This document shows positions 4,404 through 50,327 of a DNA stretch of 64,000 nt, piece after piece. Position 1 is the stretch's first letter; the number at the start of each line of letters is the position of its first letter. Source of the stretch: a virus; IMG/VR virus record IMGVR_UViG_3300037245_003639, one strand, 5' to 3'. Position numbers and translations under genes: made by a program. The notes under the pieces are model-generated. The model did not search any database. It saw nothing but the letters and a program-made list of their open reading frames with translations, and had not been told where the DNA came from.

Positions 4404-4420
4404 TCTAATCTTTCTCAGGG

Positions 4421-4705: not shown

Positions 4706-4718
4706 CGTCTTCTCCAAA

Positions 4719-4931
4719 TTAGGATTCAACATCCGGATTAAAAGGTGGAGGCCAATTCTTTTGAGTTTCTCTAATCCGTTCATAAAGAAAATCGCTTGCT
4801 TGCTCATCAAGAACTCGTTGCACTCGCAGAGCCACCGCTTTCCATTTCACAGGGCCAACTTGATCCAACAAACCAACAATATCATCTGCCGCTTGCTCTG
4901 CTTCAGGACTTATCTTTGTCGAATCTTGCAC
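4719..4931 (-). CDS. Hypothetical protein (70 aa, GTG start)
   Basis: GGAGATTGCA precedes the GTG at 4929-4931. Confidence 0.4.
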   Translation of the reverse strand: MQDSTKISPEAEQAADDIVGLLDQVGPVKWKAVALRVQRVLDEQASDFLYERIRETQKNWPPPFNPDVES

Positions 4932-5137
4932 TGCAATCTCCTAATTCCCGCCAACCGGCGAAATGGTTCCACCATTGCTTGAGAAAGAGCAACGCGACCT
5001 TCGTCGGTGTTCAATGTTTGTGCGATGATGTGATTCAAATCTACAGTACCACATTTTGGACAATAATTGAATTGTCTTTGGTCACCATGCTTGCATTTAC
5101 GACATCGCTGGAGATTATCCAGTTCCATTTTCGGCAT
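4910..5137 (-). CDS. Small protein with an N-terminal zinc ribbon. Its C-terminal half copies the capsid N-terminus.
   Basis: The N-terminus is CRKCKHG...CPKCG. The C-terminal half, IIAQTLNTDEGRVALSQAMVEP, matches residues 14-36 of the 289-aa capsid candidate. The DNA at 4981-5030 is about 48/49 identical to 15246-15296. Confidence 0.5.
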   Translation of the reverse strand: MPKMELDNLQRCRKCKHGDQRQFNYCPKCGTVDLNHIIAQTLNTDEGRVALSQAMVEPFRRLAGIRRLQCKIRQR

Positions 5138-5309
5138 CTTTAGTTTTTACTGTAGTTTGACAATCATCACAGATAAAAGAATCATCATCTTCATTTATGT
5201 ATTCATTGAGAACATTGTCACCACATTTATCACAAATAGAATGAGAAGTGCAATAAGTACAAGGCGGATTAATGTGACACGAACAACCTTCTGCTTCTTC
5301 AAATGCCAT
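5115..5309 (-). CDS. Cys-rich zinc-finger protein (64 aa)
   Basis: Motifs CSCH..CTYC...CDKCG...CDDC are present. The RBS is AAGGA. Confidence 0.5.
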   Translation of the reverse strand: MAFEEAEGCSCHINPPCTYCTSHSICDKCGDNVLNEYINEDDDSFICDDCQTTVKTKDAENGTG

Positions 5310-5314
5310 CTTAT

Positions 5315-5546: not shown

Positions 5547-5933
5547 TTATTCAGCAATTAAGCATGACTTGCAATACCACTGTTTGTTTATCCGTCGCCA
5601 TCCCGTCTTTTCGATGTCCATGACCGATACTCCCTCTTCAATACACTCAAACGAACCGTATTCATCAACTTGAAACACTGAGCATGCCTCATAAACACCA
5701 CAAGAACATTCAAATATGAGTTTCTCTGTACCAGGAATTGTGCTCATTCCAAATCTCTCAGAGAAAAATGTTAGAGCCCTTGTGAGCAAATGCTCTTTTG
5801 CCATTCGCAGATGCAATTCACATGCGTCCTCACAATGCTTGCTGGCAGGTTCGTCGCAGTATCGACATTTACCCATGGTTGTTCCTGTCATTACGAAACC
5901 AATATTAGTCATCTTCTTCTTTGAACTCATCAA
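5547..5933 (-). CDS. Cys-rich protein with CxxC motifs (about 120-128 aa)
   Basis: The sequence contains CRYCDEPASKHCEDAC ... CSCG ... CKSC. The start is ambiguous: 5933 or the ATG at 5912. Confidence 0.5.
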   Translation of the reverse strand: MMSSKKKMTNIGFVMTGTTMGKCRYCDEPASKHCEDACELHLRMAKEHLLTRALTFFSERFGMSTIPGTEKLIFECSCGVYEACSVFQVDEYGSFECIEEGVSVMDIEKTGWRRINKQWYCKSCLIAE

Positions 5934-9915: not shown

Positions 9916-9950
9916 CTTCAATCTCCAAATACTTCCGACAAACAAGCCCT
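9916..9950 (-). promoter_or_regulatory. Conserved promoter-like element f: GTCGGAAGTATTTGGAGATTGAAG-ATG
   Basis: Motif copy. Confidence 0.45.
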
Positions 9951-10524
9951 AAAATTTGTTGTCAGCTTTGGCAATTAGCTTGTCAAACGGAGCCAGTTTT
10001 TCTACAGGCACCGATAAACCTCTATGCCCTGTCCTGGGAATATTTCCAAGTTTACCATGCTTCTTTATAATCGATCCATTCGCAGAGCATATACCTGCAA
10101 TATGAACATGTGGTTCATTGGTTTCGTCCAAATGGACAAAGACCTGCATATAGCCAAACACGTTCGCTTTCTTTAGTTCTTCCTCTTTAACAAACAGATT
10201 CAGACCGCCTCTGAAAGGAGCATATTTGCTTGTTTTGATATTCCAAATAGTCGTCTTGCCAGAGATATCTATGTGGACATCCCCTTCATCCCCTTTACCA
10301 CAAACCAACTCCAACGAACAAATCTTCTTTGCTTTGCCAAGTTTATCAAAGACGATGAGACTACCCAACAAATCCAGAAAATCACCTTGCCCCCTAAACT
10401 GCTCTTCTATTTCGTTAAAACCGGATCTGCGTTGCTGAGGAACGAGGTTTTGATAGAAGTGCTCTGCAAAACTAAGCAAGGGCTGAGGGATGGCTATATA
10501 AAAGTCGTTTAATATTGCTTGCAT
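9949..10524 (-). CDS. Hypothetical protein (191 aa)
   Basis: The ATG lies immediately downstream of the 65-bp repeat with a TATAAT box. Confidence 0.5.
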   Translation of the reverse strand: MQAILNDFYIAIPQPLLSFAEHFYQNLVPQQRRSGFNEIEEQFRGQGDFLDLLGSLIVFDKLGKAKKICSLELVCGKGDEGDVHIDISGKTTIWNIKTSKYAPFRGGLNLFVKEEELKKANVFGYMQVFVHLDETNEPHVHIAGICSANGSIIKKHGKLGNIPRTGHRGLSVPVEKLAPFDKLIAKADNKF

Positions 10525-11374: not shown

Positions 11375-11530
11375 TCAATCTGGCCATTTCATCAACTCGG
11401 GCAATGGGAGCGGCAACCATTCTCCGCTACATTTAGGACAACAGTGTTCATCTTTTTTTGAGGCGGGAATTTCTTCGCCGCAAAAAGGACATGTGAGAGT
11501 GACAAATTCGATGATGGTGATTTCAGTCAT
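11375..11530 (-). CDS. Micro-ORF (51 aa) encoding a zinc-ribbon protein that is missing from the ORF track
   Basis: The protein reads MTEITIIEFVTLTCPFCGEEIPASKKDEHCCPKCSGEWLPLPLPELMKWPD. Its ATG at 11530 overlaps the stop of the upstream gene (GATGACTGA), which suggests translational coupling. Confidence 0.45.
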   Translation of the reverse strand: MTEITIIEFVTLTCPFCGEEIPASKKDEHCCPKCSGEWLPLPLPELMKWPD

Positions 11531-11948
11531 CAATCATTCCCCATCCACCTTTGCGAGGCGGTGGACGACGTTCCACTTTTTTATCGTTAACAATACAAGA
11601 ACCATCTTTACTCAATTGGAGGCTCCCACTTAATCGCCCGTTGGCCAAATCAACCCACATGGTTTCTTCGACCTTCCCTGCATGAGTGGTGTCGTCTGTA
11701 TCCGAAATACAAGGGAATGCATACTTGAGTTTGTCCGCCAATGCTATCGTAAAATCTATTTCCCCCGATAAAAGCCCCTCCAGGGTATCCATGCTAATTC
11801 CAGCGTTTTCGCAAACTTGTTCGTTCGAAAGTTTAAAGAGTTTTATGTGCCCCAACAGTGTATCAGATACAGTTTTGCATTTCAGAGCATCTATATCTCG
11901 ATTTTCTATCCACTCCATGTTTTTCATATCATCTTCTATTAGATCCAT
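11523..11948 (-). CDS. Hypothetical protein (141 aa)
   Basis: CTCAGTGTATAATGAATCTGGAGATATGAGAC-ATG lies upstream, giving a -10 box plus an RBS. Confidence 0.5.
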   Translation of the reverse strand: MDLIEDDMKNMEWIENRDIDALKCKTVSDTLLGHIKLFKLSNEQVCENAGISMDTLEGLLSGEIDFTIALADKLKYAFPCISDTDDTTHAGKVEETMWVDLANGRLSGSLQLSKDGSCIVNDKKVERRPPPRKGGWGMIDD

Positions 11949-14466: not shown

Positions 14467-15336
14467 CTATGTGCCACTCGTGACTTCGATTTTCGAGACC
14501 GCGTAATCGTTGATGATAACGATTCCTACCTCTTCATAAATTACCCAACCCAGTCTTAATTTTTTGGGGTCATCAGCGGGCAATACGGTGATATCCTGGC
14601 GAATCGGGAAAGCGCCGACGGTGTCGGGGCTCGCGACAATCAGGACAGTATCCGTATCCATCTTGGACGAGACGTGAATGTCAGCCGTCCAAAGGTGACC
14701 AAACAGACCACTGGTTAGGATCTCTCTGGTCGTGGCTTCGTCATAGAAGTCCTTGCCGAACACTCTGATGGCAGCATACTGGTTGGCGTGGACAACGATC
14801 TTGGTGGCAACGAGGTCGTGCTGCTCAATGAACCTAAACGCGGTGTTCAATGAAGCAGGAGACAGCGAGCCAACGTTGGTGACGATCTGGTCGCCACGGT
14901 TGTCAACAGCCGCAATAAGTGCATTAAAGATGTTCGCATCCTCTTCCTTCTGGATCGCTTCTTTGGCCTTGATCTGTGCGCGGTCTACGATGTAGAACCT
15001 ACGAGCTTTGATCTCGGACAAACGAACCTGTGGGTTCGCAGCGATTTCGAAAGTTGGGACAAGGATTTCTTCGCCTTCCTGAATTTGGTCAGGTACAGCA
15101 CCTCGGCGTGAGATGATGTGGGCGATTGCTGCAACGTCGCGCTCGTAACGAGCCAGTGCGCCTTGCGGAAGCTCGTCAACTAACAGGAGCTTACGGCCAA
15201 CGGCCTGGTATTCAAGCGAACGACGAATTGGCTCTACCATTGCCTGAGCGAGAGCAACGCGACCTTCGTCGGTGTTCAATGCTTGTGCGATGATGGCTTC
15301 TTTTTGTTCGTTCGTAAGTGAATTCTTATCAAACAT
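14467..15336 (-). CDS. Putative major capsid protein, HK97-fold and encapsulin-like (289 aa)
   Basis: The N-terminus LTNEQKEAI...QAVGRKLLLVDELPQGA resembles the encapsulin and HK97-like motif LTEKQ...YGRKFVDV. The gene is the last in the structural operon and is followed by a strong terminator. Part of its N-terminus is copied in ORF 4910..5137. Confidence 0.5.
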   Translation of the reverse strand: MFDKNSLTNEQKEAIIAQALNTDEGRVALAQAMVEPIRRSLEYQAVGRKLLLVDELPQGALARYERDVAAIAHIISRRGAVPDQIQEGEEILVPTFEIAANPQVRLSEIKARRFYIVDRAQIKAKEAIQKEEDANIFNALIAAVDNRGDQIVTNVGSLSPASLNTAFRFIEQHDLVATKIVVHANQYAAIRVFGKDFYDEATTREILTSGLFGHLWTADIHVSSKMDTDTVLIVASPDTVGAFPIRQDITVLPADDPKKLRLGWVIYEEVGIVIINDYAVSKIEVTSGT

Positions 15337-15399: not shown

Positions 15400-16083
15400 T
15401 TAGTGATGCAGTTTGATGTGCAGGAACTGACCCCACTGGATCGAGTTAGCACCTTCTTGGCCACCGAGGCCAGAAGCGAAACCAACATCTGTGCCGGGAA
15501 CACCACTCGGATAGGCCAGCGGGCCATTGAGTGTGAGACCAGCAATCATATTAAACGGTGCAGTTCCTGGCTCTTCAGTAAAGCGACCAGCGCGAGCAAC
15601 AAGCTCACCTGTACCAACGGCTTCGCCGGCACCTGATGCATACAGAATAGATCCAGGATTAAACGCGTTGACGGTCGTGCCGTTCGCCCATGCGATTTCG
15701 TACTGGTCTGTCCAGAACTCACCACCTGAGTGATAGACTGTCATCTGCCCGGAGGCAAGAACTTCGTTGTAGTTATCTGCTATACGGTTCTGGGTAAAGC
15801 GAACGGACGCTCCCAGAGCCCCGAGGACCAACGCGCCCTCGAAAGGTGAAGAAGCCGGGTCACGGCTTTGTGCCGATCCCGATTCGGGTGTGTAACTTGT
15901 AATGCCGGTGGAGCGAGTATCACCTGCAATGCCGAGAGGATACATTGTATCACCATCGCACAAAGTAATCTGGCCGTTCGCCGGGTTTGGCGTGACCAGG
16001 CATCCCTGAGGAATGTTGGTCGTATCGTCGGCGTCGATTGGGTGATCGCTAGCAACGACATGAAATACTTCAATAAGTGCCAT
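15400..16083 (-). CDS. Gly-rich structural protein of 227 aa, possibly a decoration protein
   Basis: The ORF lies immediately upstream of the capsid candidate and has a Gly/Ala/Thr-rich composition. Confidence 0.45.
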   Translation of the reverse strand: MALIEVFHVVASDHPIDADDTTNIPQGCLVTPNPANGQITLCDGDTMYPLGIAGDTRSTGITSYTPESGSAQSRDPASSPFEGALVLGALGASVRFTQNRIADNYNEVLASGQMTVYHSGGEFWTDQYEIAWANGTTVNAFNPGSILYASGAGEAVGTGELVARAGRFTEEPGTAPFNMIAGLTLNGPLAYPSGVPGTDVGFASGLGGQEGANSIQWGQFLHIKLHH

Positions 16084-21674: not shown

Positions 21675-21705
21675 TTTTTATCAAAACCCGTGTCGAAGTG
21701 TCAAA
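21675..21705 (-). promoter_or_regulatory. Candidate sigma70-like promoter upstream of the giant gene: TTGACA-N17-ATAAAA with TG
   Basis: The minus-strand sequence TTGACACTTCGACACGGGTTTTGATAAAAAT lies about 100 nt upstream of ATG 21583. Confidence 0.3.
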
Positions 21706-23116
21706 TCTGGAATGGTAACTGAAGTTTTTTCTTCGGTTTTATTTCTAGTTCTAACCTTAAGAGTTTTTCCCTGGTAAAGTTCAAGTCAGTCTTTAGGTCC
21801 AATTCCTTTTCCTTTCGAATCAACTGGCTAGACAACTTATCAAAGTTTATTCTTCTTGTAGTTGCTTGTGGAGAAGTAATAGTCCCCACCTGACCTGCTG
21901 GTCCTGACTTTATTCCACCTCCAGGAGCAACTGAGTGAGTAGGAGGTTGATCACCCATTTCCGGCGTAGGGGGTTGCCCTGGAACTTCAGCCTCTGGTTG
22001 TCCTGTTTCTGGTGGAGATTGAAGGCGCCCATAACCCTGTTGCGTCAATTCATCCGTCACGGTTTGAAGATCAGCCAGAACTTTTACTAAATCGCTCAAA
22101 AACTCCAGATCAAGTTGGTCTTTTTGTGCCAACATAGATTGGGACACAGAAGTTATAGCGTCCAATGCGTCCTGTAATTTCTGAATCTCATTTTGCCCAG
22201 CCAATTTCATGCAGCCTTGATCTGAGCACATGACATCAGTCTCAGCCGCAATTCTTAGCAATTTCGGTAGCCGCTGTCCTATATCAGCCACTTTTGCAAG
22301 AAAGTCCTGGGGATCTATTACTTCTGTGACACCGCAATCTGAGCAAGCCGGGTTGACAACGAAACTGTTCTCGATGAACTTGATGCCGTAGTTGTATTCA
22401 TAGGCTTTATCACTGACTGCATAAGTATTTGTTTCACCTTTTTTACACTGACAGAGAGGACATTCATCTTCATCGCCATGTTCATGGTATTTGCATTTCT
22501 GTTTCTTGGCTTCGATCTGCCGAGTTTTTCTCTCTCGAATATGCTCACAATACTGGTCAGGAGTCTCTGCTTTATTGTGGCAGATAGAGCAGATAGAATA
22601 CTTGACTTGGCATCCCATTGAAGTTCCCATGATATATTCTTCTTTGATACCACGGGCCAATTGGGGATAGGCTTCGGCATCCACCCGAGCAATAATCATG
22701 ATGCCTTTACGATTTTCATCCCACCAAGAATGAACGACTTTACCTCGGGCAGCTTCGGCATCAGCGTTATTGTGGTTTGTGAAAACCGGAACTCCTACAA
22801 ATGTAGATGTGGCTTCCTTTAGTTCGGTATATCCAAACCAGTCACCGTTATCGTTCATCTCATCTGCTTTGATGGCAAAGCATTTGACGAATAGAGAGTC
22901 AGGGTGAGATTTGATTTCTGCTTCAAGATCGAAACGAGTAGCGTCACTATCCGTTCCCATCTCAGCCTCTTTATTGGATGCCGTGATTATCCGCAATGTA
23001 GCAGCTAGAGCTTCCTTATCCGCTTCAACTGCCTGATCTTTGAAAAACGAATATCTTGTCGGCGTATTGAGGAGCTTTGGTTCTATGAATATGAATTGGG
23101 CTATTTTTTCGAACAT
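21701..23116 (-). CDS. Cys-rich protein in the structural operon, function unknown (471 aa)
   Basis: It carries a cluster of at least ten Cys residues with CxxC spacing (CSICHNKAETPDQYC, ECPLCQC, ACSDCG and others). The C-terminus is Pro/Gln-rich. Confidence 0.55.
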   Translation of the reverse strand: MFEKIAQFIFIEPKLLNTPTRYSFFKDQAVEADKEALAATLRIITASNKEAEMGTDSDATRFDLEAEIKSHPDSLFVKCFAIKADEMNDNGDWFGYTELKEATSTFVGVPVFTNHNNADAEAARGKVVHSWWDENRKGIMIIARVDAEAYPQLARGIKEEYIMGTSMGCQVKYSICSICHNKAETPDQYCEHIRERKTRQIEAKKQKCKYHEHGDEDECPLCQCKKGETNTYAVSDKAYEYNYGIKFIENSFVVNPACSDCGVTEVIDPQDFLAKVADIGQRLPKLLRIAAETDVMCSDQGCMKLAGQNEIQKLQDALDAITSVSQSMLAQKDQLDLEFLSDLVKVLADLQTVTDELTQQGYGRLQSPPETGQPEAEVPGQPPTPEMGDQPPTHSVAPGGGIKSGPAGQVGTITSPQATTRRINFDKLSSQLIRKEKELDLKTDLNFTREKLLRLELEIKPKKKLQLPFQI

Positions 23117-26835: not shown

Positions 26836-27243
26836 TTAGCCCTTTACATGCTTAGGTATATCTATTCCCATTAGCTCGTTCTTTTGGTAGTTTCCTGCAT
26901 TCTTCGGCATTGGGACGCCCCACATATCTGTGGCGTGAGAAAGAGCACCCTTCAATGATTCAAAATACTTACCTGACGGGGAATAGGCTTTCTTCTTGGG
27001 GTCTTTCGGCATTCGCTTAACCCCAGCAAAAAAAGATTTTCCATAACGCTTGGAAACAGCAGGGCCAACCACTACGTAATAGGGATGGCCTGACTCGTGA
27101 TCAAAACCTTCCCATCTGAAATAAGAACCAGGTAAAATCTTCTCGAATTTTACTTTTGCATCTTTAGATTTCTTGCCGTATCGTTCTTCCCAACGAATAT
27201 GTCTTTCTTTTAGCCGTCGCCGGCCCGCGATGATAGTTTTCAT
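26836..27243 (-). CDS. Small basic protein (135 aa)
   Basis: The RBS is GAGGGTG. It overlaps the upstream gene in an ATGA arrangement. Confidence 0.5.
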   Translation of the reverse strand: MKTIIAGRRRLKERHIRWEERYGKKSKDAKVKFEKILPGSYFRWEGFDHESGHPYYVVVGPAVSKRYGKSFFAGVKRMPKDPKKKAYSPSGKYFESLKGALSHATDMWGVPMPKNAGNYQKNELMGIDIPKHVKG

Positions 27244-29675
27244 TGTTGAAACACCCTCGAAGATGCTTGTTTGTTGTATTCGGTCACCGAGAAATCACCG
27301 GGAGTCTGCCCAAAGCTTTGTCCCAGATACGACTTAAGTCGTCCGAAATATTTCCCGTAATCGCGGTGACAGTTTTTTAGTCTTCCTTCCTCGTCAACCG
27401 AGAAGAGATAGACATTATGTCTGTGTCCATTACCATTAGAAGATGCGTGTTTCTGTGGCCCTTTCATCAAAGTTTGGGTATAACTAGATACAGTCTGCTT
27501 CACTGCCTGTGGAGATTCCTCAATAGCTTTATCATCAAACCTCAATACGCTCCATCCTCGTTGAGCTAACAAATTGTCTCTTTCCTGATCGTCTAGCTGT
27601 TGCTCTGGCTGTCCGTGCCAAATCTCGCCATCACATTCAATCGCTAATTTGATTGGAGGTATGGCGAAATCCAGCAAGAAGGGTTTGCCTCCCTTGGGAT
27701 TCTCTATGGGAAACTGGGCTTTGATAACTTGTTGAGCGTTGATACCAAGATTAGACATCACATCAGTTAGCATGCCAGCCATGGACTGTTCGATACGGGT
27801 TAGCTTGACCATGGGACTCATGGCTGCCATTTCCTCTGGGTCCATTTCCTGACCTTTGCCACCTTTGCCCTTTTTCATTACCTTGCCACCTTCAGCAGCC
27901 GGTGACATTGGCATTCCTCCGCCCATGCCCATATCTCCGCCAGGCATTCCTCCGCCCATGCCCATATCTCCACCAGGCATTCCACCTGGGGCCATGCCAC
28001 CCATCTCGCCACCAGCGCCACCGGCCATTCCACCAGCACCCATTCCGCCCATGCCGCCCATGGCTCCTGCTCCTGCTCCGCCAAGCATGCCACCTGCCGG
28101 ACCCATCTGAATCTGTTCATAACGCTGACGTTTAACTTCCTGGTCATAGTCTAGATCCATTTCCTCCATGAGTGTTTGGGTAGAAATGACTTGTTTATCG
28201 TGAAGTTGCATCAACTTCTCATACCATTGATTCTTGTCTTTCAGTTGCAAGTCATTCCATTTGATAGTCGGATACAAGAAGACCGGCTCGCCAACTTCAG
28301 CGCTGGCTTCTTCGTCGATGAAACCTTGCATTTCCGCGATAGGTTTGAAGATGTTCTCTTCTGCCCATTCGGCCAAAGTATGACGCCAAGACTCGATACG
28401 ACGGATAAGTGTTTCGACGCCAACCTGAGCACTTTGATATCCAGACATCTCGCCGTTGAGCAAAGACTGGTTCAACATAAAGCCATCAAGAATCTCTTTG
28501 CCAACGTATTCCATTTCCTGAGTGACCTGTAGAATCTTGCCAGTTGCCCCATACCACTCGTATTCAAAGTTATGGTGTGTAACAATGGTAAGATTCGGGT
28601 CGTTAGCAGTTGCTGCCAATTGCTGTTGGACATCAGCAATGTCCGCGCTGGTGGCAGGACGGTTATCGCTACCAATCTTGACAACTCTCACTGGAATAAT
28701 CAGTCTCTCAGCGACAATCCAGTTAGCAGTCATGATTTTGGTTTTGTATGCCAGAGTCGTAAACAAACGACGAATCAACGACGATCCATAAGTGCCATAA
28801 GGAACTGGCATATGTCGGAGGTGAGAAACTGTCCTGTTCGATAGCGGAATTGGTTTATTCTGTAAGACCAGACTTTTGACATAATCTGGGATGCGGTCAT
28901 AGACTACCTTGGGTTGCTTGTAAAAGACAATTCGCTTCAGTTCTTCGTCGGGAACCAGGACTACTGCGGGCTCATCCGCTAAGACCGACTGCTGAACTTC
29001 AATCCAGTCAGGATTAAGAACAATCAATCGTTTGAATGAGCCACCCGGATGGTCGCATTGCTCACCAGAATCGGGGTCAACACCTCTGCCCTCACAAACT
29101 GGACATTCCACGTCAGTATGGATAAAGACATCTCCGAGCATGAAATATTCAGAGGCAATCATCTTGAATTTCTCATTAAGTTTAAGACGTTTGACTACGT
29201 GATGTTCAAAGAACTTCAGGACTTTACGACTGGTACATTCTAACTTGAAGCCATTCATAGGGAAGCGACTGTAGAAGTCGATGGCAGCAGCAACTTTAGG
29301 TTCATTTTCGTAGAAGAAACGACACCATTGATAGATTTCACGTCTACGGGATGCAATTTGCCAGTTCTGGGGAGTATGTAATGGAGAGAACCACATAGGG
29401 TTCGTCATCATATTACTAACGCCAGAAGCCTGAGCCATTTTTACCCAGGCATCGGGAGCCATTGCATATTGAGTGCTAGCGTATTTGAAATTGGGATCGT
29501 AATATGGGAAAAGAGCTTGGCTGTCTACAGCTCGCTCAGCATCAAGTTGTCTAATGCGATGTTCCGAAGCCATCTTTGGTGGCATGGCATTGGGATCTTT
29601 ATATGTATCTCCCATCACGATTGGCTGATGCCATTCGGGATCATCGGGAAGAAGTATATTGCGGCCTTGTAGCAT
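27240..29675 (-). CDS. Large structural protein (811 aa), portal-like by size and position (hypothesis). It has a Gly/Met-rich linker and a C-terminal DUF559/Vsr-like endonuclease domain.
   Basis: The C-terminal region PFLLDFAIPPIKLAIECDGEIWHGQPEQQLDDQERDNLLAQRGWSVLRFDDKAIEE matches the DUF559 or very-short-patch-repair-like PD-(D/E)xK fold pattern (VDF...IEVDG..H.......D..R...L...GW.VLRF). A (GGM)n linker precedes it. There is a CPVCEGRG...C zinc knuckle mid-protein. Confidence 0.6.
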   Translation of the reverse strand: MLQGRNILLPDDPEWHQPIVMGDTYKDPNAMPPKMASEHRIRQLDAERAVDSQALFPYYDPNFKYASTQYAMAPDAWVKMAQASGVSNMMTNPMWFSPLHTPQNWQIASRRREIYQWCRFFYENEPKVAAAIDFYSRFPMNGFKLECTSRKVLKFFEHHVVKRLKLNEKFKMIASEYFMLGDVFIHTDVECPVCEGRGVDPDSGEQCDHPGGSFKRLIVLNPDWIEVQQSVLADEPAVVLVPDEELKRIVFYKQPKVVYDRIPDYVKSLVLQNKPIPLSNRTVSHLRHMPVPYGTYGSSLIRRLFTTLAYKTKIMTANWIVAERLIIPVRVVKIGSDNRPATSADIADVQQQLAATANDPNLTIVTHHNFEYEWYGATGKILQVTQEMEYVGKEILDGFMLNQSLLNGEMSGYQSAQVGVETLIRRIESWRHTLAEWAEENIFKPIAEMQGFIDEEASAEVGEPVFLYPTIKWNDLQLKDKNQWYEKLMQLHDKQVISTQTLMEEMDLDYDQEVKRQRYEQIQMGPAGGMLGGAGAGAMGGMGGMGAGGMAGGAGGEMGGMAPGGMPGGDMGMGGGMPGGDMGMGGGMPMSPAAEGGKVMKKGKGGKGQEMDPEEMAAMSPMVKLTRIEQSMAGMLTDVMSNLGINAQQVIKAQFPIENPKGGKPFLLDFAIPPIKLAIECDGEIWHGQPEQQLDDQERDNLLAQRGWSVLRFDDKAIEESPQAVKQTVSSYTQTLMKGPQKHASSNGNGHRHNVYLFSVDEEGRLKNCHRDYGKYFGRLKSYLGQSFGQTPGDFSVTEYNKQASSRVFQQ
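27911..27990. repeat. 33-bp in-frame tandem repeat, 2.3 copies, encoding GGDMGMGGGMP
   Basis: The sequence gcattcctccgcccatgcccatatctccgccag is directly repeated. Confidence 0.6.
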
Positions 29676-29688: not shown

Positions 29689-32613
29689 TCAGCCGTCCAT
29701 TTCTAGGTCTTTACTTGTCTCATCAACATCGTCCTGGACGCGTTTGACGATTTTAATCAGCACCTGACTATCAGGGGCGCTGTCAATTATACCTCTTTCA
29801 TGTTCATCGCAACTATCTAAGAAGTTATGGATGTCATCTTCATCCCTATTAAAGAGATCCAGCAACTCGGGCCGGAGTCTTATCGTTGGGGTTTCTTTAT
29901 GTAATAGAGGTTTTGCTCTATTGTAAGGAAGTGATCTGCGTATAGGTTCTACCGTTGGTCGTCCTATAGGAGGATCGGTTTGCTCTCTGCTTAGATATGC
30001 TTCTCTGAAGGCGTCGAAATGGCCTTTGTCTGCTGCGGATGCTCTTTCATTCCACGTTAGCTTTTTTTTTTTAGGTTCTACGTCCTCGGGCTCTATGTCT
30101 TTGGGCTCAGGGAATCCACAGAATCCACACGCTTGTTTGTAATTCCAAGAAGATGCTTTGCGACAGTCTTTGTCTTTCTTTTTGTCTTTCTTTTTGTCTT
30201 TCTTGTCGTCTTTCTCTCGGTCTTGCTCTTTCACATGCTGGACGCAGCGTTCGAATTTTGCTTCACCTTCGTCTTTGCCACCGGTGGATTTATTGCAAAC
30301 AGCCCAAGGGTTGTATTCAAAATGTTCACCCTTATAGGTGACACCTTTCTCTTTCTTCGCCTGTTTGTCATGAGATTGACATTTTTGATTGAAGCAGCCT
30401 CCCTTTCCCATCTTTGAGCCACATCTCCGACAGGTGGGCACATCAAATGGTTCTGTGCTAAGCCGTCCGTCAGGGCTACGTCGGCCTCCATCTGCAAACC
30501 CAGTAGACAGGTTGCCTCCTTGGGCAAATCTGTTCATATCGAAAGATATTTTGCGAGTGTTGGTTCTGCTGGCAACTGGGCCTACTCCGTTATGCTGTTT
30601 TTTGGGGACTAACCATAAGGCCGGTCCTGAAGCAGTTGAAACGGCATAATCTGACAGGTGATAATATGCTTTGCGACTTTTTTGAGAAGGATAGACTACA
30701 ATTCCTCCTGCTTGTGATTGTATTGAATCTCCCGTAGCATTTATTAGCTCTTGTAGTGTTTTGGATTGTCTCTCTTGGTCTATCAGATCCATTTCTTCGT
30801 TAGTATACGGTTCTCCCCCATCAGCATATCCGTCATCAGGTATGATCTGAGCAAATCTTTTCATATTGAAAGATGCCTGGCGTTTGCCATTACCGTTGTT
30901 GACAATGACCGCCTTATCTCGGATCTTCTTTAGCCTATCAATCTGCTTAGGATCTGTTTCCTCGGGAGCAGGTAGTGTCATATTGTTTTCGTCCACTATG
31001 GATTGTAGTCTATTATAAGGTGCTTTAATATCACCCATTTCTACATCTGCTGTTTTGAGACTAGATAGGTTGAAACCCTTCTTTGCTATTTTGGGTTGGT
31101 TTTCTTGTTTTGTTTTGTTGGTATACTGAACTGTTTGATGACCACTGGCCTCTTCTCGATTGTCACGAGTTGACTGGGGCTGTTGGACATTATTCTGGTC
31201 TACATCCGTATTCCATTGGAATGGGTCGCCCGTGTTAGTGTCTGGACGATAGCCCCGGTCTTTGCCCTCTGCTTTACGCATGGCTTGCATACGGGATTCA
31301 GTATTGCCCCATGCCGGTGGACGAGCTTTTCTGGTCTCGCCTGGCTTGAGCCGCATTTTGTTTTCTTCAGGGACATTGCGGTTGATTTCAAATCGTTTGT
31401 TGAGATAACCGCCTTTGATATTGCCATCTGCATCAACGTATTCACGGGAGAATTTATCCATGGCGTCAGCTCGCCATAGGGCTTCGCCACAGATGGTCTT
31501 ATTGTCATCGATTACGATTGCATCATGGCAATGGTGCCGACAGATATACTCAGAGACAACATCTCCTGAGCCGGATGGTCCACCTCCTTTACCTCGAAGT
31601 TTCGGACAGATGCGTTTCTCAGTCGGACCATATAGAAGATATTGCTGCCCGAATTGATCCGCAGCCGTTTTTATCACCGTATGGCTATTATTCAAGACCT
31701 GTTCAGACAGGTTGAATTTGATAATACCCTTCGGGTTTTTGTTATCGCTCATTACTGGCTCCATAGGTTGAGGCTCGGGCTGCATAGGTTGAGGCTCGGG
31801 CTGCATCTGGCTTTCGACAGCCGCAGGAGCAATCCAGTTATCGAAGATATATGCCAGATATTGCTCTGCTTCCTGCTTGTCTATTTGTGATGAAAGCCCC
31901 TGAATCTTCTCAAGAGGGCTATTGACCTCCTCATGAGCAGCGGGGCTGACCATTCCCATGATCTCGTTTTTGGCCTGTTCTGATATAGCGTCTTCTCGCC
32001 CCTTTTTACTGTCGTAAGCAAGCAAAGCATCAACGTAGCGTTCTATAAATAGCCCTTTATCAGCAACGTTAGTTTCCAGCGGTTGCACTTGAGCCATTTT
32101 TCTTGATGCTGCCACGGGCATCATCATTTCATTGCCCTGCTGATCTCTTTGAATTCTCAGTAGATTTTGAATCGTCTGACCCAACGGGCCATTCATGACC
32201 ACTTGCTCTGCCTTCTGTAAAAGTTGCGGCTCCAGTGACATCAACTGGGGTTCAGTAGTAATTTGGTCAGATATGTCTCGGTACCTGGCATCATTTGCTA
32301 CGTCTTGAGCAGCAAGTTCGTTAATCAATTGATACCAAACTGTGCGTCCCTCTTGCCCTTGGTTGAATAGATATTCCTGGGCCTGTTTGAGTGTAAAATC
32401 ATCCACAAGCATATCTGCTTGTTCTGCCAATTGTCTATCTTGCAAATCCTCAGATTCAAACTCTTGTTCTGATTGACCTCTATCAACAGCTATTTCATCT
32501 TGACCCTGTTCATTTAACTGATCTGCGATATCATCTAAACGACCGGCCTGCCACATATCTGTGACAGCACCGCCGCTGGGAATATCATCCGCAAACTTCG
32601 AGAAATTGAACAC
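29689..32613 (-). CDS. Large protein of 974 aa with an internal duplicated segment, a Cys cluster and a (DKKK)n tract
   Basis: The internal repeats are ASFNMKRFAQIIPDDGYADGG and ISFDMNRFAQGGNLSTGFADGG. DNA tandem repeats lie at 30167-30216 and 31762-31806. Confidence 0.55.
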   Translation of the reverse strand: MFNFSKFADDIPSGGAVTDMWQAGRLDDIADQLNEQGQDEIAVDRGQSEQEFESEDLQDRQLAEQADMLVDDFTLKQAQEYLFNQGQEGRTVWYQLINELAAQDVANDARYRDISDQITTEPQLMSLEPQLLQKAEQVVMNGPLGQTIQNLLRIQRDQQGNEMMMPVAASRKMAQVQPLETNVADKGLFIERYVDALLAYDSKKGREDAISEQAKNEIMGMVSPAAHEEVNSPLEKIQGLSSQIDKQEAEQYLAYIFDNWIAPAAVESQMQPEPQPMQPEPQPMEPVMSDNKNPKGIIKFNLSEQVLNNSHTVIKTAADQFGQQYLLYGPTEKRICPKLRGKGGGPSGSGDVVSEYICRHHCHDAIVIDDNKTICGEALWRADAMDKFSREYVDADGNIKGGYLNKRFEINRNVPEENKMRLKPGETRKARPPAWGNTESRMQAMRKAEGKDRGYRPDTNTGDPFQWNTDVDQNNVQQPQSTRDNREEASGHQTVQYTNKTKQENQPKIAKKGFNLSSLKTADVEMGDIKAPYNRLQSIVDENNMTLPAPEETDPKQIDRLKKIRDKAVIVNNGNGKRQASFNMKRFAQIIPDDGYADGGEPYTNEEMDLIDQERQSKTLQELINATGDSIQSQAGGIVVYPSQKSRKAYYHLSDYAVSTASGPALWLVPKKQHNGVGPVASRTNTRKISFDMNRFAQGGNLSTGFADGGRRSPDGRLSTEPFDVPTCRRCGSKMGKGGCFNQKCQSHDKQAKKEKGVTYKGEHFEYNPWAVCNKSTGGKDEGEAKFERCVQHVKEQDREKDDKKDKKKDKKKDKDCRKASSWNYKQACGFCGFPEPKDIEPEDVEPKKKKLTWNERASAADKGHFDAFREAYLSREQTDPPIGRPTVEPIRRSLPYNRAKPLLHKETPTIRLRPELLDLFNRDEDDIHNFLDSCDEHERGIIDSAPDSQVLIKIVKRVQDDVDETSKDLEMDG

Positions 32614-42758: not shown

Positions 42759-44669
42759 CTATCCTATTTTGCCGAACTTGCGATTTAAGAACTGCCATTG
42801 TTGAGGAGCATATTGTCCCCTGCCAATGTTCCAACTCTGTCCACCCACCGCTGCATCTCTACTTTGTGGCATATTGACTACGCCTCCTTTAGCGTAACCA
42901 GCATAATGTTGCTCCATTGCAACTCCACAGGCCCCTGCCAATGAGTCACAGCAGTCATCCGTGGTTGCAAGGGCATCGTCATCAGGTTGAATTTTAAAGC
43001 CCAAAGGTCCGTAAACACGCTTTAGACACTTTAATTCCATTGCCATCAATTCAGCATCGTGGCCTTTGTAAGGTAAAGCAAGCTGATGGTTTACCAGTAA
43101 GTGTTCAAGATGATTGTAAATCTGTATTTTGTATTGCTTGCGGAAGGGCGTCATCCGAGTTGGAATTCCCTTCGATCTTAACTTTTGAATACTCGCCATG
43201 GAATTCCAACTATCGTAAGTTACCAAAGCAAATCGGAACCGTTTTGCTAAATCTATGACATATTCGTCTACCTCGTGAACACTAATAGATCTGTCAGGAT
43301 AAGGATGCCATACTTTCACATGATCAACAACAAACAGTTTGAATTTCTCTTTTTTGGGAGGCCCGATTTCACTTTGGTTTGTTCTGATACGTTCCTCGAC
43401 ATGCAGAACGGTTAAAGCGTAATTATGTGAAGTAGCGGCCGGGTCCAAGTGAGCAAAATAGACCACTCCAGGGATGCCCTGGATATGCGCTCCACTATTA
43501 AGCCTGCGACCCATTTCAACTGCTTCTTCTATATAAATGTCTGGAATGAACTTCTCTCCTGCCGTTCCCGAAAATTCTGCTCCAAATTCCATCAAGAACT
43601 CATTAGGGTTCATGAATTTGAATTCTGAGCGTAAAGAAATTTCGCTAAACATCTGGTTTACTTTCCAGGTTGGCAGTTGGTAAGCGAGACGGTTGTGGTT
43701 TTTTGGAGCCGTATTGTATAGATGGAAAAGCATACCCTCTTCACCACGGGGCGATGAAATACTGATGATTTTACTATCCAAGAGAGGAACATCTTCACCG
43801 TTCTCATCTTTGTAAGTTTTGGTCGGATGCTTGAAGTCTGCGGTGGCGGGAGTTAGAGCAGAATAAATACGGTCACCAGATGTGGCTCCACCAGTCGTCT
43901 TAAATGATGCTACTTCGTCCAGCAACAAACAATAGATACGTTTACCCAGCAGACCTTCGCTGTTAGAGTGACCAGACATAATACAAATAGAACCCGGCGT
44001 TTGAGCCGTGGGTAATCCTTGCTTCACCAAATCAGCGTTATTCTTCTTATCTTCAGGGGTTAAGAACCACAATCTGTCAGCCTCAACTTTGCCTATTTTG
44101 CTCTTGAAATATTCCGAACCTTGCATTCGTGATTTAATTTCGTTGTACAAAATTCGCGCCTGATCTGCCGATGTAGCAACTGTGATGATGTAGATGGGAT
44201 TACCCGGAGCCAAACCGTAATAGCCAAAGGGACTTCCACTGGGACATTCCAATAGTTTCATGCACTCATAGAGAGCAATCATAGATGTCATAAAGTCCTT
44301 GCCAGAACGACGACCCAGGACCAGAACAAGCTCTCTAAACAATGCATTCGAGTGATATTTATCAAGAACTAACTGCATTTTGTTGGTAAACAACATCTCG
44401 ATTTCTTCCGGAGTCAATTTGATATGTTCATTTCCTGATTGCCCTCGGTAGAAAGATTTCAGGATAATCTGTTGCATTGGAAAGAGGTTAATTGGCCTGA
44501 CTCCAACCTTCCCGATGGCTTTCATATTGAGGTATTTCTTTGAATAGCAGAATTCAATAATATCAGGAATGTATGGTTCTGATGTGTCAGATGAGGAGAG
44601 GGCTACCTGCTCCTTTATCTTAGATACAACTTCACTTATACTAATTGCACTATCTTCGTCTTTTGACAT
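42759..44669 (-). CDS. terL: Terminase large subunit
   Basis: Walker A-like VLGRRSGKD and Walker B-like CLLLDEV are present. The C-terminal nuclease has the acidic residues FAHLDPAATS, VVDHV and DDCCDSLAG. The size is 636 aa. Confidence 0.75.
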   Translation of the reverse strand: MSKDEDSAISISEVVSKIKEQVALSSSDTSEPYIPDIIEFCYSKKYLNMKAIGKVGVRPINLFPMQQIILKSFYRGQSGNEHIKLTPEEIEMLFTNKMQLVLDKYHSNALFRELVLVLGRRSGKDFMTSMIALYECMKLLECPSGSPFGYYGLAPGNPIYIITVATSADQARILYNEIKSRMQGSEYFKSKIGKVEADRLWFLTPEDKKNNADLVKQGLPTAQTPGSICIMSGHSNSEGLLGKRIYCLLLDEVASFKTTGGATSGDRIYSALTPATADFKHPTKTYKDENGEDVPLLDSKIISISSPRGEEGMLFHLYNTAPKNHNRLAYQLPTWKVNQMFSEISLRSEFKFMNPNEFLMEFGAEFSGTAGEKFIPDIYIEEAVEMGRRLNSGAHIQGIPGVVYFAHLDPAATSHNYALTVLHVEERIRTNQSEIGPPKKEKFKLFVVDHVKVWHPYPDRSISVHEVDEYVIDLAKRFRFALVTYDSWNSMASIQKLRSKGIPTRMTPFRKQYKIQIYNHLEHLLVNHQLALPYKGHDAELMAMELKCLKRVYGPLGFKIQPDDDALATTDDCCDSLAGACGVAMEQHYAGYAKGGVVNMPQSRDAAVGGQSWNIGRGQYAPQQWQFLNRKFGKIG

Positions 44670-47011: not shown

Positions 47012-50000
47012 TTATCGCCTCGGGGGCTGCCGCCAAAGCTCGTCTAATTCCTCCGCAGGAGGAATAGCTACATCTTCTTCATATCCTTGTCGGCGGAGGC
47101 GTTCCTCCGTAGTTCCGGGATCATACACTCCTCCTTCGAACATCGCTTCAAGTTCTTCAGGGGAAACATCGCCTTCATCAGGTTCGCTGGGTTGCAATCC
47201 GGCAAATTCTCCAGGCCCCTCCTCCTCGAATGGATCGAAATTTTGGGTGTTAATTACATGCTGCCTGACCACAGATTTAGCCGCGGATCTCAAATCTCCG
47301 GTTTCATCGAACAGGAATGATAAATCATGAACTGCATTTTTCATCCATTCTGCGAAAATGTTACGGTTGTTTTCGTTTTGTTCCCAACCTCCGTTTTCTG
47401 TTTCAAATTCAGGCCCTCGTAACTCTGGGCTTTCTCTTCGCATTACTTCGAAGAACTTATCCAGACTGGTATGTAACATAAGAGCTTGGGAACCTGTTAG
47501 CGGAGTTTCCGCGTCGGGAGCGGCACGTTCGGCTCCAAGGCTGTGTTTTTCAGTAGCGTATTGTCTGGCCATATCTTCAAATCCAGGGGGCATTTTATCT
47601 CTTGCGATCTCAGCCCATAGATTAAAGATCTCTTCATCGCTATGCGTTCCTGCTGGTCTTAACTCATTGAAATACGCATCCAAAGTTGTCTGCCATATCG
47701 GAGAGTTACTACGAGGGTCTATGCCCTCCCATTCAGTGGCCTCTTTATAGAATGCTCGTTTTACCCAATTGTCCATAGTTTGCTTCCTCGATGCGTAACG
47801 CAGGTCTTCCCCGCCTAAGTCGATTTCGTACCAATTGCGGTTATACGCTTTCGCTGAACTAGCGCCATATTGTTGCGCAGTGCGATTATATATTCGTTCA
47901 AAAAGTTGTTTCTTTTCAGGGCCTCCAAATTCAGCCCAAATCTTCATAAGCTCATCTGCTGTAATAATTCGGACTTTCTCAAACCCTCTCCCCTTTGCCT
48001 CTCGGATAGCCACATTAAAAAACAATGGAATCCAATCTTTGAAGCGATTTTCCAGTTTGGACCGCCAATCATGCCATTTACCAGGATCTTTGCTTGTGTA
48101 CAGGTCCGTGTCGGTCTGAACACCCGATTCCATTTTGTTACGGGCATCTCGAAGTTGCTCCTCTAAACCCTCAAGTTCCATCGCGCTCTTAGACCGTCGT
48201 ATGGAATCATCAGCCCCTTCGGGCATCTGAGATAACTGTCCCTGAAGCTTTTCCAGCAGAACCTGGTTTTTCTGGAACTGAGTATCTTGCGGCTGGCCCA
48301 TTCTGGACATATATGTAAGTTGTTCTTGTTCCTTGTTTATAGCATCAATTTTTTGTTGGAGTTTGTCTCTAGGGCTGACTATCGGTTCTTCCATTTTCGA
48401 TCGGATTCTGTGAACCCGATCTTGAAGACGAGCAACCTCACCTTCCCAAAATTTAGTTACTTTCTTGGGATCTCGCATATAAGGAGTGCGTTGCATAATA
48501 TCACTCTGCACTTCTGTGATATACATCACTTTCTCACTATAATCGGCATAACCCCCAATCCAACCCAATGGGGGCACACCTTCCGTCTTCTGAACAGTGT
48601 GGAAAGGCAATTCGGTCATTAACTCACGCGGAATGCGGTCTTGTTCCTTTTCATTTGTCTCTCTCCCCTGAATCATTTCAGATCCAGGTGAAACAGAAAT
48701 CTGGAACGGCTCCAAGAAATCAGGCATCCCTCCGTGTCCCGAGCCAGGATAAGAACCACGCTGAAGACTATATTGATGTGGAAATGGTCTTTGAGATATC
48801 CCAAGTTCTTTCAGTTTTTGCAATTCCTCTGGAGAAAGTTGTTCCGCTCCCGGATTAAGCATATGATGATATTTCTCTTGTTCCGCTGCTTGTTGTTGTT
48901 GCTGCTGTAGGTAGAGTTGCCTGGCTTGTTCTTGACGTTCTGCATCTTGTTCTCGTTGAAGCATAACAGCCTGAATAGCATCATTGGCTCGAATGGATTC
49001 GGGAATAACCACATCACTTTTACCAATGGCTTCTTCAACCCCTCGTAATACTGCCCGAGGATCTGGGGCCAAACGGTTTATTTCGTTTGAGAACAACTGT
49101 TTCAAAGTATCATTGGAACTAATGATATCTTTAATGCCCTGGGTATACATGGACGTTGTGCCAACCACCTTGTATACACTGGATGCTATGCTCCCAGCTT
49201 CTTCCATCGCATTTAGAGCCGAAAGGATTTTAGATATGCTCATGTCTTTGCGTTCATCGTCTTCCTCTTCAGGCATGATATCGCGGTAATATTCATCTTT
49301 GAATAATTCGTAGGGATCGAATCCTAATCGATGATTCATTTCCCTGGCATGTTCCTTAGAATATTCAGTATCACTGTCGGATATACTTTGCTCCGCGTTC
49401 TCTTTGAGATCTGCTCCATGATACTCCGTGTACCAATCAGATACTGTGCTATCACGGTCAAAGGTATCATCAGCTTTGTCCCTCAACTGTGCATCATCAA
49501 CCCACTCGACATCTCCTGGTATCTCTTTTCGATCCCAAGAATTCATTTCATTATTCGACCAGATTTCTGAGAATAGTTCCGCAGTGAATTTAGCCATTGT
49601 TTCATAGAACTCTTCCATCGGCCTGACATTATCAGGGTCTTCCGCAGCCGTTTGGTAAGCTGCTTGAATGTCCGCAACTGATATATCTAACGGGATGCCC
49701 TGATTGGTAAAAGCTTGTTCATACTCTGTCATTTTCTCCCATAACCCTTGAAGTGCTTCGGGAGCGGGAAGATCGCGCTTACCTAATGTTTCTTCGTAGT
49801 AGTCTTTTAAAAGTTGTGGAAGGTTCGTGTCGTCATCAATGTATTTGAGAAAACTTTCCCATTGGTCTTCTTTAAGGCGAGTGAAGTCCAAATCAGCCAC
49901 GTACATATCAGCGTATGTGCCTATCTCATCTTTTACTCGTTCTTCATCTGGCTCATAATCAGGTCGAGGATAGTTGGTATAGTATGTGTCGTATACAGGA

Positions 50001-50299
50001 ATTCCCTGTTCATTTTTGATTATCTGTCTATTCTCGTCATATCGATATTGTCTCTGAGATTCTTGTTCTATTTCGATATCTTCATACAGAGTCTCAAAAA
50101 TGGTATGAAAATATTCCAAAGCAGTTGTCACTACATCTTTGAATTGGGCCGCACTACGCATTTGACGCAAATCAGCTACCCCCGGTCCTTCAAACAGATA
50201 GCCCTGACCTAACTGTTCAGGTGGTATCTCCAGGATTTGCTGTAAGCCATTGACTGATAATGGCACTATATGTTGTGAGAATTTGATAAGCCAGTTCAT
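47012..50299 (-). CDS. Large protein of about 1095 aa, paralog A of the 59025..61814 gene
   Basis: The corrected start is MNWLIKFSQ, preceded by GAGGCTATCC-ATG. The ORF-track TTG extension is removed. Shared blocks with paralog B are GWIGGYADYS..YITEVQSDIMQRTPYMRD and WHDWRSKLENRFKDWIPLFFNVAIREAK. Confidence 0.6.
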   Translation of the reverse strand: MNWLIKFSQHIVPLSVNGLQQILEIPPEQLGQGYLFEGPGVADLRQMRSAAQFKDVVTTALEYFHTIFETLYEDIEIEQESQRQYRYDENRQIIKNEQGIPVYDTYYTNYPRPDYEPDEERVKDEIGTYADMYVADLDFTRLKEDQWESFLKYIDDDTNLPQLLKDYYEETLGKRDLPAPEALQGLWEKMTEYEQAFTNQGIPLDISVADIQAAYQTAAEDPDNVRPMEEFYETMAKFTAELFSEIWSNNEMNSWDRKEIPGDVEWVDDAQLRDKADDTFDRDSTVSDWYTEYHGADLKENAEQSISDSDTEYSKEHAREMNHRLGFDPYELFKDEYYRDIMPEEEDDERKDMSISKILSALNAMEEAGSIASSVYKVVGTTSMYTQGIKDIISSNDTLKQLFSNEINRLAPDPRAVLRGVEEAIGKSDVVIPESIRANDAIQAVMLQREQDAERQEQARQLYLQQQQQQAAEQEKYHHMLNPGAEQLSPEELQKLKELGISQRPFPHQYSLQRGSYPGSGHGGMPDFLEPFQISVSPGSEMIQGRETNEKEQDRIPRELMTELPFHTVQKTEGVPPLGWIGGYADYSEKVMYITEVQSDIMQRTPYMRDPKKVTKFWEGEVARLQDRVHRIRSKMEEPIVSPRDKLQQKIDAINKEQEQLTYMSRMGQPQDTQFQKNQVLLEKLQGQLSQMPEGADDSIRRSKSAMELEGLEEQLRDARNKMESGVQTDTDLYTSKDPGKWHDWRSKLENRFKDWIPLFFNVAIREAKGRGFEKVRIITADELMKIWAEFGGPEKKQLFERIYNRTAQQYGASSAKAYNRNWYEIDLGGEDLRYASRKQTMDNWVKRAFYKEATEWEGIDPRSNSPIWQTTLDAYFNELRPAGTHSDEEIFNLWAEIARDKMPPGFEDMARQYATEKHSLGAERAAPDAETPLTGSQALMLHTSLDKFFEVMRRESPELRGPEFETENGGWEQNENNRNIFAEWMKNAVHDLSFLFDETGDLRSAAKSVVRQHVINTQNFDPFEEEGPGEFAGLQPSEPDEGDVSPEELEAMFEGGVYDPGTTEERLRRQGYEEDVAIPPAEELDELWRQPPRR

Positions 50300-50327
50300 G
50301 GATAGCCTCAACTATCCTATTTTACAC

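Follow-up and report, generated by a model that had tools for sequence, protein, structure and literature searches.

Why would a giant phage keep, about 10 kb from its capsid gene, a small gene that carries a copy of part of its own capsid protein? This question is raised by a 64,000-nucleotide (nt) stretch of viral DNA, IMG/VR record IMGVR_UViG_3300037245_003639 (hereafter the window), in which the open reading frame (ORF) 4910..5137 encodes a protein of 75 amino acids (aa) that joins an N-terminal zinc ribbon to a copy of the N-terminal arm (N-arm) of the resident major capsid protein (MCP). An initial annotation had pointed out both modules, and both were confirmed; the ORF list places the gene on the minus strand. 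To judge from its sequence, the mini-gene is a true gene, with predicted expression, and part of the accessory set of a phage-G-like giant phage. It belongs to an ancient family of ribbon-arm genes and carries a recent patch of apparent gene conversion. We propose, at a probability of about 0.45, that the arm imitates its counterpart in the MCP and that the protein has a role in the assembly of the head.

A capsid arm on a zinc-ribbon protein

The mini-protein (MPKMELDNLQRCRKCKHGDQRQFNYCPKCGTVDLNHIIAQTLNTDEGRVALSQAMVEPFRRLAGIRRLQCKIRQR) has a CxxC-x10-CxxC zinc ribbon with putative metal ligands C12, C15, C26 and C29. The ribbon spans residues C12-G30 (CRKC-x10-CPKCG; 5048..5104, minus strand) and contains the four ligand cysteines in two knuckles that zinc-ribbon families require, with metal binding predicted. 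Matches to Pfam stayed under the gathering scores, at 22.2 bits against 28.9 for Zn_ribbon_15 and 18.7 against 27.3 for DZR. Behind the ribbon, residues 37-61 (IIAQTLNTDEGRVALSQAMVEPFRR) are identical to MCP residues 15-39 at 22 of 25 positions and include the N-arm motif AL.T.EGR.ALAQAMVEPIRR. from the capsid protein. The 5′ part of the arm copy (residues 37-51, IIAQTLNTDEGRVAL) is encoded at 4986..5029 and the 3′ part (residues 51-61, ...LSQAMVEPFRR, with its S and F residues) at 4955..4985; the protein then ends in a basic tail, LAGIRRLQCKIRQR, which is encoded together with the stop codon at 4910..4954, all on the minus strand. The initial annotation had counted 19 of 22 identities to MCP residues 14-36; the match itself stands, but the correct figures are 20 of 22 and residues 15-36. 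Only residues 37-61 align to the MCP, and the full HK97 fold (N-arm, E-loop, P-domain with spine helix and A-domain in about 280-290 aa) is absent. A model made with AlphaFold2 (AF2) from the family alignment described below had a mean predicted local distance difference test (pLDDT) score of 79.5, with beta knuckles at residues 10-32, a helix at 34-42, a turn, and a helix at 45-74 that extends through the tail; pLDDT was above 90 across the arm. A Foldseek search of this model against the PDB gave nothing significant, and the best matches were generic zinc ribbons.

The 289-aa capsid candidate (14467..15336, minus strand) is, as had been proposed, a genuine MCP of the full HK97-fold, gp27-like kind. 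It matches phrog_2522 'major head protein' with E=4e-67, is 54% identical to gp27 of Bacillus phage G, and matches PDB 6WKK 'Gp27 major capsid protein' with E=4e-96. The donor or partner copy of the arm, MCP residues 15-39 (IIAQALNTDEGRVALAQAMVEPIRR), lies at 15220..15294 on the minus strand. Few stretches of the MCP are as conserved as the arm: 12 residues within 19-38 are invariant in 43 MCPs, and its motif is nearly invariant over more than 1,000 MCP clusters. An AF2 model of the MCP, made with 43 close homologues, was poor (pLDDT 42.8) and too weak to place the docking of the arm.

At the DNA level, a window-wide repeat search joined the two sites as repeat family D4 (4956-5030 and 15221-15295; 75 nt, 89% identity). 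The copies form a direct repeat and are 10,265 nt apart, in agreement with the annotated distance of 10 kb and the same orientation. No repeat unit longer than D4 was reported in the window, in line with the claim that no comparable repeat joins two coding regions there; the other repeat families look like promoter or ribosome-binding-site (RBS) elements, or are tandem repeats within one gene. An annotated match of 48 of 49 bases between 4981-5030 and 15246-15296 is real but was miscounted: the identity is 47 of 50 against 15246-15295, and the best block, 4986-5030, is identical to the MCP copy at 44 of 45 positions.

The 5′ part of the arm copy agrees with the resident MCP gene (15251-15294) at 43 of 44 nt. 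For comparison, 80 loci encoding MCP relatives were fetched, and the arm stretch was readable in 79. Over the same 44 nt, the MCP genes of these relatives matched that of the window at 38 positions at most (median 30), and six relatives with an identical arm peptide reached just 35-37. The arm copy is therefore not due to chance, because its 43 matches exceed the maximum seen in relatives even where the peptide is the same. The closest DNA match to the arm copy among all loci is the resident MCP gene, and import from the MCP of another phage was rejected for this reason.

JGI contig L083 (1,231 nt) spans the whole arm copy and its unique flanks with 100% identity to the window, while Logan contig L082, also 100% identical, enters the arm copy from upstream and ends inside the repeat. 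The two contigs were assembled separately and may come from the same source sample. An exact 26-mer of the repeat had no match in IMG/VR, and a blastn search of 4400-6000 against GenBank phages returned none.

A family of ribbon-arm fusions

A word-indexed protein search with the mini-protein alone gave nothing, and the family was revealed only by an exhaustive HMMER phmmer search over 1.84 billion representatives. Five small proteins (P0001-P0005; 61-107 aa) matched query residues 9-64, and thus both modules, with 46-56% identity and E values from 2e-13 to 1.8e-7. We define the family by the collinear arrangement of CxxC-x10-14-CxxC[GA], a linker and the arm in fewer than 110 aa; the mini-protein has this arrangement and is one of six members (alignment A2). 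The four cysteines, D19 and R21, as well as L42, T44, G47, R48, L51, M55 and P58 of the arm, are invariant in all six, and sub-threshold DZR matches were found in three. The linker has about 7 residues and the arm motif reads ..II.QAL.T.EGR.AL..AMVEP.RR; P0003 serves as an example (MKQKFECKKCLHFDNRDFQHCPECGEINKERVIRQALSTPNGRENLAKAMVEPFRRRLMVENG). In four of the six members, exactly 13 residues separate the CG of the ribbon from the T of the arm, and this shared spacing points to a single ancestral fusion.

Comparison of the three members with DNA gave proportions of synonymous differences (pS) of 0.67-0.89, which is saturated, and of non-synonymous differences (pN) of 0.35-0.39. Saturated synonymous sites together with the lower pN indicate that the fusion is ancient and that its protein sequence is under constraint. 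At least three of the five homologues are located on metagenomic contigs with giant-phage-like DNA. The contig of P0001 (L088) is syntenic with the window at 50.4-56.2 kb, and the 913-aa gene just downstream of P0003 (L085, L086) is homologous to 47012..50311 of the window (E=1e-126). Gene callers recognised the homologues, whose starts are preceded by Shine-Dalgarno-like sequences or overlap the upstream gene by ATGA. Related giant phages thus appear to carry the same fusion, a point that the initial annotation had left to be checked, and the five homologues share the collinear ribbon and arm. The similarity is not confined to one isolate, nor is it an assembly artefact, given these homologues and the contig that spans the copy. 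Taken from these alignments, the ribbon-arm fusion is to all appearances a real, old and rare gene family.

Mosaic copy and gene conversion

The nine nucleotide differences between the 75-nt copies are unevenly distributed: the last 31 nt hold eight of them and the first 44 nt just one. A split with at most one of nine in the first 44 nt has a probability of 0.005, for a boundary that was chosen after the data had been seen. In the last 31 nt, the mini-gene matches the resident MCP gene at 23 positions (23/31), compared to a median of 26/31 for the MCP genes of relatives. It is here that S52 and F59 of the mini-protein replace A30 and I37, which are invariant in the MCP. The S and F residues recur in distant members of the family, as in P0001 (ALSQAMVEPFR) and P0003 (AMVEPFRR), and in other arm-only proteins, such as P0027, P0030, P0035, P0037 and P0038. 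Six of the differences between the mini-gene and MCP copies are synonymous and three are non-synonymous, and the ratio of non-synonymous to synonymous rates (dN/dS) of the duplicated block, a measurement that had been suggested at the outset, is 0.13 (Fisher p=0.007), a sign that the two copies are under constraint.

The simplest reading of this mosaic is that the copy is an old paralogue, the 5′ 44 nt of which have lately been overwritten by gene conversion from the resident MCP gene. The suggestion in the initial annotation that capsid gene and early region had recently recombined would then hold for a patch of about 44 nt, but not for the fusion itself, which the saturated synonymous sites show to be old. 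Gene conversion would have kept the arm copy matched to the coexisting capsid protein, and the patch illustrates how a mimic can keep pace with changes in its target.

The arm on other small proteins

The arm looks like a discrete module that can be reused: a profile search recovered small proteins that carry it behind N-terminal sequences unrelated to each other. In P0027 and P0028 the arm stands behind hydrophobic, membrane-anchor-like segments, in P0030 behind a signal-like segment with cysteines, and in P0031, P0035, P0036, P0037 and P0038 behind other N-terminal sequences. Homology to the MCP stops right after EP.RR in P0028, P0031, P0035, P0037 and P0038, and runs further into MCP-like sequence in P0027, P0030 and P0036. 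The genes of P0035 and P0036 are found among non-structural genes (such as those for ThiF, methyltransferases and DNA polymerase III alpha). Many further profile matches were exon-1 products or truncated ends of MCP genes. If the anchor- or signal-like N-termini of P0027, P0028 and P0030 are genuine, they would place the capsid arm at the membrane.

Other fragments of the MCP were also observed. In locus L121 (8195-8623; also L122 and L123), where the MCP is 96% identical to that of the window, an ORF of 142 aa about 2 kb downstream of the MCP gene starts with a copy of the C-terminal segment of the MCP (residues ~230-280) and continues with an unrelated domain; tblastn gave 54% identity over MCP residues 203-284. 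This ORF is a second kind of MCP-fragment chimera in the phage group. Within the window, a charged protein of 974 aa (ORF 29689..32613, next to the portal gene) has a C-terminal sequence, PTVEPIRRSLPY (29887-29994, minus strand), that resembles MVEPIRRSLEY of the MCP arm with a marginal tblastn E value of 0.04 (within the window). Relatives of this C-terminus were sought to test the arm-like 'VEPIRRSL', and none were found.

Genomic setting of the mini-gene and the capsid gene

The mini-gene stands in a series of small genes, all on one strand, that lies downstream of the head module. The label 'early region' used in the initial annotation is an assumption. The upstream neighbour of the mini-gene (5115..5309, minus strand) encodes a Cys-rich protein of 64 aa, and the stop codon of this gene is 20 nt inside the mini-gene; the two may be translationally coupled. 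The downstream neighbour (4719..4931, minus strand), which encodes 70 aa and was called as a gene in L083, has a strong Shine-Dalgarno sequence within the tail of the mini-gene, so that the AGGAG (4938-4942) and the GTG start (4931) of one gene overlap the end of the other. The Logan gene caller called the mini-gene with a start at Met4. The proteins of 5547..5933 and 4719..4931 had no relatives in IMG/VR, and a scan for promoters and terminators showed no enrichment compared to shuffled sequence. Apart from a LAGLIDADG gene, the genes at 344-13306 had no relatives within 10 kb of the MCP gene in the 80 related loci. Two sets of repeats were observed in the same region: five copies of a 26-34-nt element at 7677-11064 (D2/D3), each of which ends in GGAGAT on the minus strand, and an 80-nt direct repeat (D6/D8; 10527-10605 and 11965-12044) just upstream of ORFs 9949..10524 and 11523..11948. 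Both look like repeated promoter or RBS units of the small-gene region.

The head-module genes of the window follow the order of those of phage G, with the large terminase at 42759..44669, the portal at 27240..29675 (minus strand), the prohead protease at 21701..23116, and, directly upstream of the MCP gene and in place of the phage G gp26 decoration gene, a gene at 15400..16083. This order and the gp27-like MCP indicate that the window comes from a phage-G-like giant phage. Residues 618-730 of the portal protein form a C-terminal DUF559/MTES_1575/HNH-like endonuclease domain, which may have arisen by fusion or be a mobile element that inserted there. An ORF of 1,820 aa (16148-21610, minus strand) separates the protease gene from the upstream neighbour of the MCP gene; it has no family match, contains 15-nt tandem repeats at 18383-18497 and is a candidate scaffold or internal head protein.

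Introns and endonucleases were observed at and around the capsid genes of this group. In three related loci (L019 8832-10000, L020, and L080 8776-10006), an insertion of about 1.15 kb that encodes a double-motif LAGLIDADG protein follows MCP codon 32 (ALAQA|MVEP). This group I intron with its LAGLIDADG gene therefore interrupts the very stretch that is duplicated in the window. The L019 insertion matched Rfam Intron_gpI with 31.8 bits (E=6e-6), below the gathering score, and nothing reached that score in the window or in three intron-bearing loci. In L064 (8904-9985), an insertion with a different endonuclease-like ORF and no Rfam intron match follows MCP codon 54, and the databases hold many 54-aa 'exon 1' ORFs that end in ...GRKLLLVD. 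The MCP gene of the window is itself free of introns, which were seen only in the MCP genes of relatives. Directly downstream of it is a free-standing LAGLIDADG homing-endonuclease gene (13303-14295, minus strand; Pfam E=6e-19), which has a counterpart at the same position in 23 related loci (53-66% identity) and is replaced by HNH_3 in the closest relative, L121. No intron RNA fold (Rfam) was detected at the mini-gene locus, and no endonuclease ORF was detected at 4.4-6.0 kb. Farther away, the L088 homologue (9823-11688) of the 227-aa gene of the window (53761-54444) holds an intein with LAGLIDADG/HNH domains; the copy in the window is free of inteins.

Proposed role in head assembly

The best-supported reading of these data is that the mini-protein is a diffusible copy of the arm that acts on capsid assembly, a function that we infer from sequence. 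This reading is stronger than it was when first put forward because the fusion has turned out to be a conserved family. In phage 80alpha, the C-terminal helix-and-hook of the scaffold binds the helix of the capsid N-arm, as resolved at high resolution, and the SaPI1 protein CpmB competes at this site (PMC5644958). Capsid N-arms also make long-range contacts between subunits (bioRxiv 10.1101/2022.09.09.507160). The free arm would imitate the MCP N-arm and occupy the binding partner of the latter during head assembly, and in HK97-fold capsids this partner is the C-terminal helix of the scaffold or core protein, or a groove on a neighbouring MCP subunit. Binding of this kind could hold back or time the polymerisation of the capsid, or it could dock the zinc-ribbon payload onto assembling procapsids. 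The docking idea is favoured because the payloads on the same arm vary, and the nearly payload-free P0035 and P0038 fit both docking and polymerisation control. The possibility that the arm is a prohead-protease cleavage site was rejected: phage G has N for E at that position, and the gp27 deposited in PDB 6WKK is almost full-length (280 aa), which suggests that the arm is not removed from the MCP.

In a broader form of this proposal, the N-arm of the MCP would be a portable capsid-docking tag of phage-G-like giant phages that was copied from the capsid gene, is attached to varied payloads (ribbons, predicted membrane anchors and other domains) and is kept matched to the capsid by occasional gene conversion. 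The tagged proteins would be recruited to the partner of the arm in the assembling head, where they are packaged or set the time and place of polymerisation of the very large capsid. We consider this generalisation doubtful. If it is true, it would amount to a capsid-derived system of targeting or regulation without a described counterpart, and it would bear on the loading of cargo into large phage capsids.

Several observations weigh against a role of the mini-protein in assembly. No recognisable Shine-Dalgarno sequence precedes ATG 5137 or ATG 5128, so translation would need coupling to the 64-aa gene, and the JGI gene caller left the mini-gene uncalled in contig L083. The family is rare, with six members, and strict pattern scans found none in IMG/VR or in the JGI metagenomes: 'CPxCG...T..GR..L...MV' gave only chance matches (1 in IMG/VR and 27 in the JGI metagenomes), as did 'QAMVEPF' (3 in IMG/VR). 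The closest relatives, with MCPs 93-96% identical to that of the window, have no mini-gene within 10 kb downstream of the MCP gene; in one of them, L125, the 64-aa neighbour has a homologue, but the gene after it is unrelated to the mini-gene. The mini-gene is therefore dispensable. Phage G has no second copy of the arm. In addition, the proposed partner of the arm is hypothetical in the phage-G-like group, and a protein that mimics the arm of its own phage should be detrimental to assembly unless its dose or timing is kept in check.

Several bacterial defence systems, among them CapRel, Lit/Gol and PifA, respond to particular parts of major capsid proteins. By this general precedent, the mini-protein might instead be a counter-defence or sensor decoy, which displays the arm epitope early or non-productively and so titrates or blocks host immunity that senses the capsid. 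The arm, as the most invariant surface of the MCP (nearly so over the more than 1,000 clusters), would be a likely trigger for such a sensor, and the position of the gene among small, variably present accessory genes is typical of conflict genes. However, a copy of the trigger is expected to activate a sensor and not to silence it, and PADLOC gave no convincing match for the family (one member, E=0.003); we think a decoy unlikely. Lower still do we place the idea of an interference weapon, in which a dominant-negative arm poisons the assembly of co-infecting relatives and is tolerated by its producer through timing or through the S/F substitutions. The arm is indeed conserved among relatives, the arm-only proteins share changes at two positions that do not vary in the MCP (A30 to S, I37 to F/L), and competition-type selfish elements abound around the MCP gene in this phage group. 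In this phage, however, the mimic is 88% identical to the MCP arm and has recently been made closer to it by gene conversion, which is the opposite of what self-protection would favour.

It is just as improbable that the fusion is a non-functional by-product, that is, a capsid-gene fragment that the repair of a double-strand break, close to a hotspot of homing endonucleases, placed in frame within a small zinc-ribbon ORF and that has yet to decay. Such an origin would suit the 5′ region of the MCP gene, which is an intron and endonuclease hotspot in relatives and here belongs to a gene that abuts a LAGLIDADG gene; it would also suit the length of the insert (75 nt, without which the host ORF is intact), the weak Shine-Dalgarno sequence, and the different MCP-fragment chimera in a close relative. 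It does not explain why the same collinear fusion, with the same spacing, is present in five diverged genomes with saturated synonymous sites, why the differences from the MCP are mainly synonymous, or why the 3′ part holds residues specific to the family and not those of the MCP, and the shared junction argues against independent insertions. The intron after codon 32 in relatives (L019, L020, L080) falls within the duplicated stretch, and all but one of the nine nucleotide differences are no more than about 20 nt from the point where it is inserted. This might be expected if the repeat were a DNA- or RNA-level element (a recombination site, an mRNA operator or a second target for a homing endonuclease), with the peptide as an incidental product. 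Since the family conserves the peptide and not the nucleotides, and since the window has no Rfam family at gathering score and an intron-free MCP gene, we regard this as very unlikely. The chance that the copy is a metagenome assembly artefact or a chimera formed at the repeat is close to negligible. The repeat does break short-k-mer assemblies, as shown by Logan contig L082, which ends inside it. Against an artefact stand L083, which is 100% identical to the window over the whole copy and the unique sequence to either side, the nine positions at which the copy and the MCP gene differ, and the homologous fusions elsewhere.

If the mini-protein does act on assembly as proposed, the ribbon-arm family would address the question of how capsids of the phage G class are nucleated and how their size is controlled. 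Phage G builds a T=52 shell. A conserved soluble copy of the arm could be used as bait for the partner of the arm, or to perturb assembly in trans. If the mini-protein is inert, the locus would instead document how capsid genes rich in introns and endonucleases shed in-frame fragments into new genes.

Comparison with known systems

The arm of the mini-protein is homologous to residues ~12-36 of gp27-type MCPs such as that of phage G (PDB 6WKK; phrog_2522). In contrast to gp27, which has the shell domains, the mini-protein has no E-loop, P-domain or A-domain and cannot be a shell subunit. In phage T4, gp24 is a full-length MCP paralogue and forms complete HK97-fold subunits at the vertices; it resembles the present case as a duplicate of a capsid gene that is kept in the same genome, whereas the mini-protein retains only a 25-residue fragment on an unrelated domain. 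The Pfam families DZR, Zn_ribbon_15 and Zn_ribbon_Com share the CxxC-x10-CPxCG knuckles with the mini-protein, but none carries a capsid arm. The exon-1 products of split MCP genes (P0011, P0012, P0017 and P0024; L064) are likewise short ORFs, which consist of just the MCP N-terminus with the arm. These ORFs use the MCP start codon at the MCP locus and are completed by splicing, while the mini-gene lies at a distance of 10 kb and encodes an N-terminal domain of its own. It is plausible that exon-1 ORFs were raw material for arm-only genes.

According to Mullaney and Black, the internal proteins of phage T4 reportedly carry a capsid targeting sequence. This is likewise a short peptide shared by different payloads, which it could direct into the prohead. 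The T4 sequence is N-terminal, has about 10 residues, is not derived from the MCP and is cleaved off by the prohead protease. In contrast, the arm described here has 25 residues, is C-terminal to its payload and is derived from the MCP; being in the C-terminal half, it is not an N-terminal tag of the T4 type.

No description of a phage-encoded mimic of a capsid arm was found in the literature. The nearest known concept is scaffold mimicry by SaPI1 CpmB, since both are cases of interface mimicry in capsid assembly. CpmB is a small protein that copies one side of the interface between the N-arm and the scaffold, competes there and redirects assembly, and the parallel drawn here comes from sequence comparison. 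The C-terminal amphipathic helix and RIIK-type hook of CpmB which are homologous to the C-terminus of the scaffold, are absent from the mini-protein, whose helix is homologous to the MCP arm and not to a scaffold; CpmB has no zinc ribbon, and the two proteins share no sequence similarity. CpmB copies the scaffold side of the interface and is encoded by a satellite, while the mini-protein copies the capsid side and is encoded by the phage. If the proposed role is correct, this would be a virus that mimics its own capsid protein, and not a satellite that mimics the scaffold.

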